Source: Escherichia coli (GTDB taxonomy: Bacteria > Pseudomonadota > Gammaproteobacteria > Enterobacterales > Enterobacteriaceae). Taken from it: a DNA stretch of 64,000 nucleotides. Both the position numbers and the translations under genes were made by a program. The notes under the pieces are model-generated. The model ran no database searches. It had not been told where the DNA came from and saw only the letters and a program-made list of their open reading frames with translations. Shown piece after piece: positions 55,544 through 64,000 of the stretch (position 1 is its first letter; each line of letters starts with the position of its first letter). Location: assembly GCF_003018255.1 (NCBI RefSeq), contig NZ_CP027440.1; one strand, 5' to 3'.

Positions 55544-55561
55544 ATTTATTAGAATGCTGAC

Positions 55562-55596
55562 AAACCGCAAAGCTACTATTGGCTTGCGGTTTTTTC
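55562..55596 (+). terminator. Rho-independent terminator of the metZWV operon
   Basis: Hairpin aaccgcaaagc...gcttgcggtt followed by tttttt. Confidence 0.7.
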
Positions 55597-56174
55597 GTTT
55601 TTACGCTTCCTTACCCGTTTCAGTGAAGCCTGAGACAATGAGTAAACCGTTAATATCCCTCCATCAAAGCCATCCATCTTATTTATATATTAAACATATA
55701 CCCCATTAATGAATTTTATATATTCTATAAATCAATTTATTTTGGTTATGTTAACATTTCAATATCACAACAGGGCGCTACGCTTATATAATCATTGTAC
55801 AAAAAGCACACAACTTTTTAATTAGTAGAAAAATTAATAATTTTTTGTGAAAGCCCGGACAATAAGTTTAATGAATATCTTAATAGGCTCTCATACTACC
55901 CAATTTCTTAAAAGTGCAAATTTGTGAAGCTTACCCTGTTATTATTTTAAGTTTCATGCCAAATTCTCTCACCAGATAATGCCACCCTCTCCCGAAAAAT
56001 AATCAAGAGGCCAAACAATATCTAAAATGATACAACTGTATCTATTCCCCTGAAAAATACATTATTCATTTGTATATTTTCCTCATCATTGCTTTTTATT
56101 TAAATCATCCGATAATCCCCTGAATATAATTATGTCAATAACCATCAGAAAAAGTGGATGATGAGGAAAAGGAT

Positions 56175-56675
56175 ATGGCCGACAGTTTCCAGAATGAAGT
56201 TCCCGCCGCTCGTGTAAATATCAAGCTTGATCTGCATACAGGCAATGCTAAAAAGAAAGTTGAACTCCCCCTCAAGCTTCTTGCCGTAGGCGATTACAGT
56301 AACGGAAAAGAGCAACGTCCGCTGTCCGAACGGGACAAGGTTGATATCAATAAAAACAACTTCAACAGCGTCATGGCTGAGTTTTCGCCTGCGGTTAATT
56401 TAACAGTAGAAGATACGCTAAACGGAAACGGTAATGAACAAAATATCGCGCTTGAATTTAAAAGCCTGAAGGATTTTGAACCCGAACAGGTAGCAAAAAA
56501 TATTCCGCAACTTCGTGTATTACTCGCTATGCGCAATTTACTACGTGACCTGAAATCCAATCTGCTGGATAACGCAACGTTTCGCCGTGAACTGGAAAAT
56601 ATCCTGAAAGACCCGACGCTCAGTTCAGAACTGCGTGATGAACTGGCGAAAATTGCGCCGCAGGAGAACGTTTAA
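56175..56675 (+). CDS. tssB: Type VI secretion contractile sheath small subunit TssB (VipA)
   Basis: ORF 56154..56675 trimmed to MADSFQNEVPAARVNIKLDLHTGNAKKKVELPLKLLAVGDYS (166 aa), the characteristic TssB N-terminus; RBS aggaaaagga ahead. Confidence 0.9.
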   Translation: MADSFQNEVPAARVNIKLDLHTGNAKKKVELPLKLLAVGDYSNGKEQRPLSERDKVDINKNNFNSVMAEFSPAVNLTVEDTLNGNGNEQNIALEFKSLKDFEPEQVAKNIPQLRVLLAMRNLLRDLKSNLLDNATFRRELENILKDPTLSSELRDELAKIAPQENV

Positions 56676-56733
56676 CCCGAACGCGTATTCAGGTTAAACC
56701 GGAGAAGAAAGGATCCCTAAAAAGGAAATGCTG

Positions 56734-62013: not shown

Positions 62014-62505
62014 ATGGCTATTCCTGCTTATCTCTGGCTGAAAGATGACGGCGGCGCAGATATCAAAGGTTCCGTGGACGTTCAGGGGCGCGAAGGCAGC
62101 ATCGAAGTGGTGGCGTTGGATCACGATGTGTACATCCCGACCGACAACAACACCGGCAAACTGACCGGTACCCGTACTCACAAGCCCTTTACGTTTACCA
62201 AAGAAATCGATGCGTCCAGTCCGTATCTCTACAAAGCTGTGACCACCGGTCAGACCCTGAAAACGGCAGAATTTAAGTTTTACCGCATCAACGATGCCGG
62301 TCAGGAAGTGGAGTACTTCAACATCACGCTTGATAACGTCAAGCTGGTCAGAGTCGCTCCGCTGATGCACGACATCAAGGATCCTTCCAGAGAGAAGCAT
62401 AACCACCTGGAACGTATTGAGTTCCGCTACGAGAAAATCACCTGGACTTACAAAGACGGCAACATCATTCATTCCGACTCGTGGAATGAGCGTCCTTCCG
62501 CCTGA
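62014..62505 (+). CDS. hcp: Type VI secretion tube protein Hcp
   Basis: 163 aa, MAIPAYLWLKDDGGADIKGSVDVQGREGSIEVVALDHDVYIP, the characteristic Hcp N-terminus. Confidence 0.92.
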   Translation: MAIPAYLWLKDDGGADIKGSVDVQGREGSIEVVALDHDVYIPTDNNTGKLTGTRTHKPFTFTKEIDASSPYLYKAVTTGQTLKTAEFKFYRINDAGQEVEYFNITLDNVKLVRVAPLMHDIKDPSREKHNHLERIEFRYEKITWTYKDGNIIHSDSWNERPSA

Positions 62506-62512
62506 TAACTGC

Positions 62513-62539
62513 GGCAGACAGGAAACTGTCTGCCTTTTT
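62513..62539 (+). terminator. Rho-independent terminator or attenuator downstream of hcp
   Basis: ggcagacaggaaactgtctgcc hairpin followed by ttttt. Confidence 0.7.
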
Positions 62540-62696
62540 GTTGTGTGCTTTGTCCAGTGCCGCAGGCACCGGTACTGAGCAAAGCATACCCACAATCTGG
62601 TGAAACCTGATGGGCCTGTGTGAGGTAACGGCTATGGGCGGTAGCGTGCCTGAACGCGGATCGCAGGAATACAGAACACGATAAGGAAACCCTTCT

Positions 62697-64000
62697 ATGA
62701 CAGGAAATCACCCCGCCGCGCTGCTGCGTCGCCTTAACCCATACTGTGCACGGGCGTTGGACGCTGCCGCCTCACTGTGTCAGACCCGCGCCCATGCGGA
62801 GATAACCATTGAACACTGGCTGCTGAAACTGCTGGAGCAGGGAGAAGGCGATATCACGGTGATTGCCCGTCGCTATGAATGGGATATCGACACGCTCTGG
62901 CAGTCTCTGCTGGCGCATCTGGACACCTTACCCCGCTCGGTCCGCGAACGTCCTCAACTTTCTGAACCGCTGGCAGCGCTTATCAGACAGGCGTGGCTGA
63001 TAGCGTCACTGGAAGGTGACGATCCACAAATCCGCAGCCAGCACCTGCTGATGGCGCTGACAGAAAAACCGATGCTGCCCGCCTGTAATGACCTGTGGGT
63101 ATTGCTGAGTCTGAGCCGCGTGCAGCTTGAGCGGCTGCATCCCCTGCTGGATGCGCAGTCGGATGAATGTCCGGCACGTCAGCCACAGGTCACCGAACCG
63201 CTGACATCCGCGCAACCAGAGTCGGCAACGACGGACGTACCGGCAAAAACGCTGACGGGGAAACAGGATGACGCCCTGCTGGCGGTGCTTAACCGCTTTA
63301 CCGAAGACGTGACGGAAAAAGCCCGTAGCGGGCGAATCGACCCAGTATTCGGGCGCGACACCGAAATTCGCCAGATGGTCGATATCCTCTCCCGTCGCCG
63401 CAAAAACAACCCGATTCTGGTGGGAGAACCGGGGGTGGGCAAAACCGCACTGGTGGAAGGGCTGGCGCTGCGTATCGCCGAAGGCAACGTGCCCGACAGC
63501 CTGAAAACGGTGCATATCCGCACGCTGGACCTCGGTCTGTTACAGGCTGGCGCGGGTGTTAAAGGTGAATTTGAGCAGCGACTGAAAAACGTGATTGATG
63601 CAGCACAGAAATCGCCGGAGCCGGTACTGCTGTTTATTGATGAAGCCCATACCATTATCGGCGCGGGTAACCAGGCTGGCGGCGCGGATGCGGCGAACCT
63701 GCTGAAACCGGCACTGGCAAGGGGCGAACTGCGCACCATCGCGGCGACCACGTGGAGCGAATACAAACAGTATTTTGAGCGCGACGCCGCGCTGGAGCGC
63801 CGCTTCCAGATGGTTAAGGTTGACGAGCCGGATGATGACACCGCCTGTCTGATGCTGCGGGGACTGAAGGCCCGTTATGCACAGCACCACGGCGTGCATA
63901 TGCTGGACAGCGCCATTCAGACCGCCGTGCGCCTGTCGCGCCGCTATCTGACCGGACGCCAGCTGCCGGACAAGGCGGTTGATTTGCTGGATACCGCCGG
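62697..64000 (+). CDS. clpV: Type VI secretion AAA+ ATPase ClpV (TssH), N-terminal part (continues beyond window end)
   Basis: Translation from the ATG at 62697: MTGNHPAALLRRLNPYCARALDAAASLC... with Walker A GEPGVGKTA and Walker B LLFIDEAH; no stop before position 64000; not in the ORF track because it is open-ended. Confidence 0.88.
   Translation, partial: MTGNHPAALLRRLNPYCARALDAAASLCQTRAHAEITIEHWLLKLLEQGEGDITVIARRYEWDIDTLWQSLLAHLDTLPRSVRERPQLSEPLAALIRQAWLIASLEGDDPQIRSQHLLMALTEKPMLPACNDLWVLLSLSRVQLERLHPLLDAQSDECPARQPQVTEPLTSAQPESATTDVPAKTLTGKQDDALLAVLNRFTEDVTEKARSGRIDPVFGRDTEIRQMVDILSRRRKNNPILVGEPGVGKTALVEGLALRIAEGNVPDSLKTVHIRTLDLGLLQAGAGVKGEFEQRLKNVIDAAQKSPEPVLLFIDEAHTIIGAGNQAGGADAANLLKPALARGELRTIAATTWSEYKQYFERDAALERRFQMVKVDEPDDDTACLMLRGLKARYAQHHGVHMLDSAIQTAVRLSRRYLTGRQLPDKAVDLLDTA

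Follow-up and report, generated by a model that had tools for sequence, protein, structure and literature searches.

The sequence examined here, referred to as the window, is a 64,000-nucleotide (nt) stretch of Escherichia coli contig NZ_CP027440.1 (RefSeq assembly GCF_003018255.1). From position 55544, the first base past the last of three tandem tRNA-fMet genes, to its end at position 64000, the window carries genes of a type VI secretion system (T6SS). An initial annotation had proposed that the third tRNA is followed, across an AT-rich junction, by tssB, tssC, tssK, tssL, a TagL-like gene, hcp, and clpV, all on the plus strand and with tight or overlapping junctions, and this arrangement was borne out by tRNA predictions (ARAGORN and Rfam), base composition, gene models, and matches in NCBIfam, Pfam, and PDB. 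Curated NCBIfam cutoffs served as the threshold for gene identity, with Pfam and PDB sequence matches as added evidence. The features of the region are as follows.

55247-55323, 55357-55433, and 55467-55543, plus strand: three identical tandem tRNA-fMet genes, the equivalents of metZ, metW, and metV (ARAGORN tRNA-Met(CAT); Rfam RF00005, 61.4 bits each)
55530-55570, plus strand: left copy of a 41-bp repeat, made up of the last 14 nt of metV (GGCCCCCGCAACCA) and 27 nt beyond it; attL-like proximal boundary of the T6SS module
55562-55598, plus strand: intrinsic-terminator-like hairpin with a U-run, 3′ of metV (RNA fold, −17.3 kcal/mol; z = −2.94)
55571-56174, plus strand: AT-rich (~31% G+C) noncoding spacer 5′ of tssB (base composition)
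56175-56675, plus strand: tssB, contractile sheath small subunit, 166 amino acids (aa) (TIGR03358, 163.5 bits, cutoff 97; RefSeq annotation of a near-identical genome)
56734-58272 (RefSeq start), plus strand: tssC, contractile sheath large subunit, 512 aa (TIGR03355, 663.7 bits, cutoff 271.5)
58292-59629, plus strand: tssK, baseplate subunit, 445 aa (TIGR03353, 398.3 bits, cutoff 100)
59626-60291, plus strand: tssL short form, 221 aa (NF038239 “TssL short form,” 278.2 bits, cutoff 180)
60304-61956, plus strand: gene for a TagL-like accessory protein, 550 aa (C-terminal Pfam OmpA domain, residues 437 to 533)
62014-62505, plus strand: hcp (tssD), tube protein, 163 aa (TIGR03344, 172.5 bits, cutoff 58.9)
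62513-62539, plus strand: terminator-like hairpin (9-bp stem with 6 G-C pairs) followed by T5 (consensus scan)
62697-64000, plus strand: tssH/clpV, AAA+ sheath-recycling ATPase, 5′ 434 codons (positions 1 to 406 of 852 of the ClpV1 model TIGR03345, 564.5 bits)

The six T6SS genes that lie completely within the window are all intact and full length relative to their models, and the intervals between successive genes from tssB to tssH are 58, 19, −4, 12, 57, and 191 nt. The last gene is cut by the window end and comprises 881 codons in the nearest genomes, and tssC has a further in-frame ATG at position 56728, ahead of the RefSeq start at 56734. Protein searches, which might have contradicted the Tss assignments, matched the curated models above their cutoffs, and the PDB matches agree with them: TssK matches solved TssK chains (5m30 and 6giy) over its full length (E = 1.7e-165), TssL matches 3u66 (E = 3.5e-36), and Hcp matches 4hkh (E = 5e-89). 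Of the components by which a canonical T6SS-i is recognized, the window holds the TssB-TssC sheath, Hcp with the N-terminal part of ClpV/TssH, and TssK with TssL. For the 550-aa protein, NCBIfam holds no curated full-length TagL model, and the best OmpA-type models scored below their cutoffs. Its residues 425 to 547 match PDB entries 7rjj, 5m38, and 7bba (T6SS-associated OmpA-family domains; E = 1e-43 to 1e-50), and it has three predicted transmembrane segments (hydrophobic residues 4 to 33, 27 to 51, and 316 to 339). The neighboring TssL has a single C-terminal transmembrane segment (hydrophobic residues 182 to 205) and no peptidoglycan-binding domain. Because of this OmpA domain, these hydrophobic segments, and such a TssL next to it, the 550-aa protein is predicted to have the TagL arrangement, i.e., that of a protein that crosses the inner membrane several times and ends in an OmpA-type peptidoglycan-binding domain.

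The tRNA-fMet trio of the window is identical in sequence to metZ, metW, and metV of K-12, whose record annotates them as initiator tRNAs. In K-12, metV is directly followed by amiC across a 72-bp spacer, as the initial annotation had stated, and the site holds no T6SS genes, which could otherwise have spoken against an insertion. In the nearest complete genome, JNE23-011, the same interval extends to 32.7 kb. The base composition of the cluster is unlike that of its flank: the G+C content is 50.5% at window positions 1 to 55543, 31.2% across the 631 bp of the junction at 55544 to 56174, and 56.7%, i.e., about 6 points above the flank, at 56175 to 64000.

Comparison with the metV islands of reference pathogens showed that the genome of the reference uropathogen CFT073 is colinear with window positions 48157 to 64000, with 97.6% nucleotide identity over 15,848 nt. 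The gene order metZWV-tssB-tssC-tssK-tssL-OmpA-family gene (tagL)-hcp-tssH (clpV) is identical in CFT073, the overall site is likewise arranged as mltA-metZWV, island, and amiC, and the RefSeq protein accessions of TssB and Hcp are common to JNE23-011 and CFT073. With its location directly 3′ of metV, this gene order, and this high identity to the reference island, the segment from 55544 to 64000 can be recognized with high confidence as the promoter-proximal third of T6SS1, the E. coli gene cluster at metV. The CFT073 island has been named the pathogenicity island (PAI) PAI-CFT073-metV (PMC2660368, PMC2907695, PMC6315130) and listed as c3385 to c3410, with 25 coding sequences, 0 integrases, 0 transposases, and 53.4% G+C (PMC6315130); in avian pathogenic E. 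coli IMT5155 it is GI-7/T6SS1, “between mltA and serA-1 adjacent to tRNA-Met” (PMC4232414), and in E. coli W it is “ETSS2” (PMC3032704). T6SS1 is T6SS-i2 in the current nomenclature (PMC12282107), and the T6SS of PAI-metV falls in phylogenetic group C (PMC2907695, PMC6730261). The expectation that T6SS islands at this tRNA form a known family, with a core that is probably not new, was therefore correct: the feature is an already known, widespread island, and the window is one more carrier of it.

How widespread the island is can be seen from a search of 5,426 complete E. coli genomes, to which all genome counts below refer. At least 80% of window positions 55200 to 64000 is held by 1,052 genomes, and the tssK-tagL segment is present at 93 to 100% nucleotide identity in 1,289, such that about a quarter of the genomes carry the island. 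A second tssK-tagL lineage, with 60 to 80% identity and distinct from that of the window, occurs in 91 genomes. The allele of the window belongs to a minority, with tssK-tagL at least 99% identical in only 7 genomes and at 93 to 97% in most. Two complete genomes, JNE23-011 and JNE112863, are 100.0% identical to window positions 55200 to 64000, and over the 12.2 kb from 51792 to 64000 JNE23-011 shows a single mismatch, at 59499.

The remainder of the cluster can be followed in related genomes, which carry vgrG and a variable module of effector and immunity genes, then tssM and tssA, in many cases a PAAR-toxin pair, and tssF, tssG, tssJ, tssE, and a VasL-domain gene. In JNE23-011, tssH is followed by vgrG (826 aa), a PGRP/Amidase_2-family gene, a 147-aa gene, a 404-aa gene, tssM, and tssA and then by genes for a 468-aa PAAR protein and a small lipoprotein, tssF, tssG, tssJ, tssE, and the VasL-domain gene, the product of which has N-terminal similarity to TssA. 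TssA, TssE, TssF, TssG, TssJ, TssM, and VgrG are all present both in this genome and in CFT073, and the closest complete genomes have no pseudogene flag on any core gene. After the T6SS genes, JNE23-011 encodes a phosphoglycerate dehydrogenase, a KpsF/GutQ isomerase, MalY/PatB, a phosphotransferase system (PTS) EIIC, and a PRD regulator (minus strand), and then amiC. This five-gene PTS module, which CFT073 also has distally, corresponds to c3405 to c3410 and is retained in E2348/69, which has no T6SS (PMC2831201).

The T6SS genes are a discrete unit within this larger island. A general repeat search of the JNE23-011 locus (L001; a window coordinate equals the L001 coordinate plus 51791) identified a 41-bp perfect direct repeat, GGCCCCCGCAACCAATTTATTAGAATGCTGACAAACCGCAA, at L001 3739 to 3779 and 30869 to 30909. 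The two copies are 27,130 bp apart, and the distal one lies 207 nt 3′ of the last T6SS gene. In CFT073 this repeat pair recurs with a spacing of 27,123 bp, confirming the suggestion of the initial annotation that a direct repeat of the tRNA 3′ end might mark the distal boundary. A query with the 25 nt at the 3′ end of metV, allowing as many as 3 mismatches, found only the three tRNAs, because the tRNA part of the repeat is just 14 nt long. Each copy of the repeat leads into a terminator hairpin; the two hairpins share a stem and differ in the loop. The T6SS genes accordingly form a bounded unit of ~27.1 kb that extends from the metV 3′ end to a partial metV copy comprising its last 14 nt, with the PTS module beyond the unit; in the genome from which the window derives, the T6SS genes past position 64000 would close at the distal repeat ...GACTGTGGCCCCCGCAACCA.

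These boundaries were further examined by constructing the predicted empty site (metV, one repeat copy, and the dehydrogenase gene) and searching for it. Precise empty sites of this kind, colinear at 99.4 to 99.7% and with the PTS module only, were found in 596 genomes, including E2348/69. Three other locus states were observed: T6SS plus PTS, with the right junction conserved (957 genomes); T6SS plus a K-12-type spacer, as in CPww7 (249 genomes); and the K-12-type site, likewise a predicted empty site, with neither module (3,462 genomes). The right end of the CPww7 type reads GACTGT / GGCCCCCGCAACCA / ATT and then continues into the K-12-type spacer and amiC, whereas its left junction keeps the island-type terminator; the direct repeat in this PTS-less background is 17 nt. 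It follows that the partial tRNA copy belongs to the right end of the island and that what lies beyond it, either the PTS module or the K-12-type spacer, is the native sequence following metV. Two further elements were seen near this right end. In T6SS-positive, PTS-negative genomes such as CPww7 (L005 2311 to 2859), a gene for a MucR-family regulator, absent from the JNE23-011/CFT073 type, separates the VasL-domain gene from the distal tRNA repeat, and in a subset of genomes represented by WP5-S18-ESBL-09 (L006 506 to 2808), an IS21-family element, ISEc12, is inserted in the same interval, which explains the class with 75% coverage in the right-junction search. In the literature searched, which did not include the original island paper (Lloyd 2007), neither the repeat nor the four locus states were found described.

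The gene identities and their order were observed, and the way in which the products would work together follows from established work on this machine. TssJ, TssL, and TssM would form a complex spanning the envelope, which TagL would tie to peptidoglycan, an anchoring role assigned to it because this TssL lacks a peptidoglycan-binding domain of its own. A baseplate would be formed by TssK, TssF, TssG, and TssE with VgrG, where tube (Hcp) and sheath (TssBC) would polymerize after priming by TssA. Contraction would then fire Hcp, VgrG, PAAR, and effectors into neighboring cells, after which ClpV would disassemble and recycle the contracted sheath.

Other explanations of the locus need to be weighed. 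The cluster might belong to another E. coli T6SS class, either the aspV-linked T6SS2 (T6SS-i1) or the pheU-island Sci-1 of enteroaggregative E. coli (EAEC). The window proteins do match 5m30/6giy, 3u66, 4hkh, and 5m38/7bba, which we take to be EAEC Sci-1 TssK, the TssL cytoplasmic domain, Hcp1, and the TagL peptidoglycan-binding domain, respectively, placing the cluster in the same subclass as Sci-1, the system that serves as its structural model, and both clusters combine a short TssL with a separate TagL anchor. However, the locus is metV, neither aspV nor pheU, identity to PAI-metV of CFT073 is 97.6%, and the separate 60 to 80% identical lineage is limited to 91 genomes; further, T6SS2 is described at tRNA-Asp between yafT and ramA-1 (PMC4232414), and Sci-1, at its pheU island locus (PMC6730261), is a clearly divergent lineage. 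Assignment to T6SS2 or Sci-1 is thus refuted by position and by the identity to CFT073, and we regard it as extremely improbable. With respect to how T6SS1 came to lie at metV, we infer from the junction anatomy that recombination at the 3′ end of this gene brought the module in and that precise loss between the repeats would also be possible. A partial tRNA 3′ end, such as that found at the distal boundary, is what integration at a tRNA gene classically produces, an identical right end adjoins two native sequences that are unrelated (with shared identity limited to 17 nt in one of the two), the G+C content exceeds that of the flank by 6 points, and the literature treats the island as horizontally acquired (PMC2660368). 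The opposite history, in which the cluster was ancestral at metV and was lost through the direct repeats from K-12-like and E2348/69-like genomes, is conceivable but doubtful. It would fit the presence of the cluster in varied backgrounds, about a quarter of genomes in all; the 41-bp perfect repeat would suffice for rare precise deletion, and deletion and integration alike leave the single-copy “empty” junction seen in the 596 genomes. Loss of the island probably occurs too, and histories of gain and loss are not exclusive.

A number of observations weigh against reading the window as part of an acquired and working T6SS1 island. No integrase or transposase is annotated in the island of JNE23-011 or CFT073, and none is encoded beside the tRNA (by annotation, and with no open reading frame [ORF] of at least 60 aa in the spacer), so that the recombination mechanism is inferred; the lack of an integrase suits an ancestral locus as well, and the 41-bp repeat could also have mediated precise loss. 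An integrase-less island could be accommodated if the 27.1-kb T6SS1 module were a discrete integrative element moved into and out of the metV 3′ end by a recombinase encoded elsewhere, a speculative proposal that we consider rather unlikely and that would explain the abutment of one right end on two native sequences, the four T6SS/PTS states, and the occurrence of identical cores with different cargo. The window stops inside clpV, which limits the view of the completeness and cargo of the island in its source genome, and the cluster there might be an inactive remnant, truncated or pseudogenized downstream. Lesions are common in relatives, including a tssF frameshift in CFT073, a tssH frameshift in 13P477T, a deletion from tssC to tssE in CPww7, and IS21 insertions at the right end, and the E. 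coli W copy is reported to be inactivated by an insertion sequence (PMC3032704); the functionality of the window cluster cannot be assumed. Against such a remnant stand the six complete and intact window genes and the presence of every core gene, without a pseudogene flag, in the closest complete genomes, and we judge it distinctly unlikely.

The cargo of the island lies past the window end. An exact-protein lookup of the window TssK allele found three contigs with 100% identity to window positions 55541 to 64000, two of which reach the cargo. GCA_005046355.1 encodes a VgrG (790 aa), a DUF4123/Tla1-like adaptor, and 184-aa, 649-aa, and 162-aa proteins, the 649-aa one having a faint match to a Tle1-like catalytic domain; SRR8931299 encodes a VgrG (826 aa) and an intact 244-aa Amidase_2 protein. 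The two diverge within the last ~230 nt of vgrG. CFT073, unlike these window-identical cores with their Tle1-type or Amidase_2 modules, has a third module composed of Tli3/Tle3 and a small PAAR. Because cores that are 100% identical carry different modules, the cargo is polymorphic and not inferable from the core. The amidase module is present in 71 complete genomes, and amidase-cargo genomes that have the exact core of the window and enough sequence also carry the 468-aa PAAR toxin. The initial annotation had expected downstream cargo that is variable and potentially novel. Variability is evident from the three modules; novelty is not, as all three belong to known effector classes (Tle1-type and Tle3-type phospholipases and Amidase_2). 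PADLOC gave no match to the cargo proteins.

Several details of the cargo genes were recorded alongside. In the JNE lineage, the amidase gene (L001 16077 to 16703) has lost one base from an A7 run, and its product is 208 aa long with a C terminus read out of frame; the gene is intact in 13P477T (217 aa) and SRR8931299 (244 aa). A sequencing error is unlikely, since the same frameshifted allele occurs in six independent assemblies. The lipoprotein gene after the PAAR toxin (L001 24899 to 25323), presumed to encode the immunity protein, has a one-base deletion in a T8 run inside the signal peptide, and a product from a downstream TTG start would have no signal peptide; the toxin gene is intact. 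Together with its partner, the 468-aa PAAR protein occurs in 865 complete genomes. The C-terminal 347 residues of the PAAR protein have no Pfam or PDB sequence match and represent a family of 368 clusters among 1.84 billion representatives, in which some members have PAAR N termini and one has an N terminus of the eCIS (extracellular contractile injection system) type. An HExGH motif and a further His are invariant in this family, and the motif is kept in an 85% identical allele, suggesting that the protein is probably an uncharacterized zinc-hydrolase effector. T6SS metallopeptidase effectors are known as a class (PMC6899460, PMC12992299).

The AT-rich spacer at 55571 to 56174 presumably serves the cluster as its promoter and regulatory region. 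It contains no ORF of at least 60 aa and no plausible small ORF, Rfam at E ≤ 1 across 55000 to 64000 matched tRNAs only and nothing in the spacer, and the spacer is ~96% conserved relative to a divergent allele. A sigma-70-like site at 55764 to 55792 matches the consensus at 10 of 12 positions, a consensus match only; the promoter scan gave 6 sites versus 3.2 ± 2.1 in shuffled sequence and is thus not above expectation. Regulation of Sci-1 is tied to GATC sites and Dam. A scan of the spacer for GATC, by analogy with EAEC Sci-1, found none, and the best Fur-box candidate there has 6 mismatches in 19, leaving Fur regulation unsupported. Fur is reported to control the T6SS1 cluster of EAEC (PMC6730261). 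Because there is no GATC and no convincing Fur box 5′ of tssB, the spacer, as far as these motifs tell, does not look like that Fur-controlled promoter, a difference that adds to those between the two clusters. The hairpin at 55562 to 55598 moves together with the T6SS module; the K-12 terminator at this position is a different one, and the island-type terminator is found at the left junction of CPww7, the right flank of which is K-12-like. The second hairpin, at 62513 to 62539, is a strong one and lies within the cluster, directly 3′ of hcp and 158 nt 5′ of tssH in the 191-nt gap between them. If partly active, it may serve as an internal attenuator that would raise the level of the hcp transcript above that of the downstream transcript.

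Outside E. coli, SPI-20 and SPI-21 (Salmonella pathogenicity islands) of Salmonella enterica subsp. arizonae are reported to fall, like the PAI-metV T6SS, in group C and to have a similar architecture (PMC2907695); they differ in species, in extra ORFs, and in effectors. Antibacterial activity of SPI-20/SPI-21 has been shown experimentally (PMC12992299).

The window as a whole is a mosaic in its identity to the closest complete genome. Identity to JNE23-011 is 98.1% at 176 to 12764, 99.5% at 12797 to 50000, and ~100% at 51792 to 64000, and the best complete genome over positions 1 to 25000 reaches 98.6%, with none reaching 99%. Because of this mosaic identity, the T6SS end appears to sit in a separately inherited recombination block that is common to another lineage. 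A short CRISPR array with 29-nt type I-E-like repeats (CGGTTTATCCCCGCTGGCGCGGGGAAC...) lies at 12797 to 13077, between ygcE and queE; no cas genes are annotated near it in the closest genome. Colinearity with JNE23-011 breaks exactly at this array, indicating that its spacer content differs. The annotation of the closest genome also shows a relA-mazG gap of 96 nt with no mazE or mazF between (window positions about 19350 to 19450, where in the window only the spacer was read); in K-12 this interval contains mazEF.

T6SS1, a weapon that acts on contact, influences gut competition and, in some strains, virulence, and it is associated with extraintestinal pathogenic E. coli (PMC12282107). To a known island, the present analysis adds the exact ends of the module, four locus states with their counts, and the occurrence of identical cores with different cargo. 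The tRNA-derived repeat bounds a T6SS unit that is separable from the PTS module, which gives a clean definition of its ends and a simple polymerase chain reaction test for its presence or excision. Further, since identical cores carry different effector modules, typing of E. coli strains by T6SS core genes is uninformative about the weapon that is delivered.

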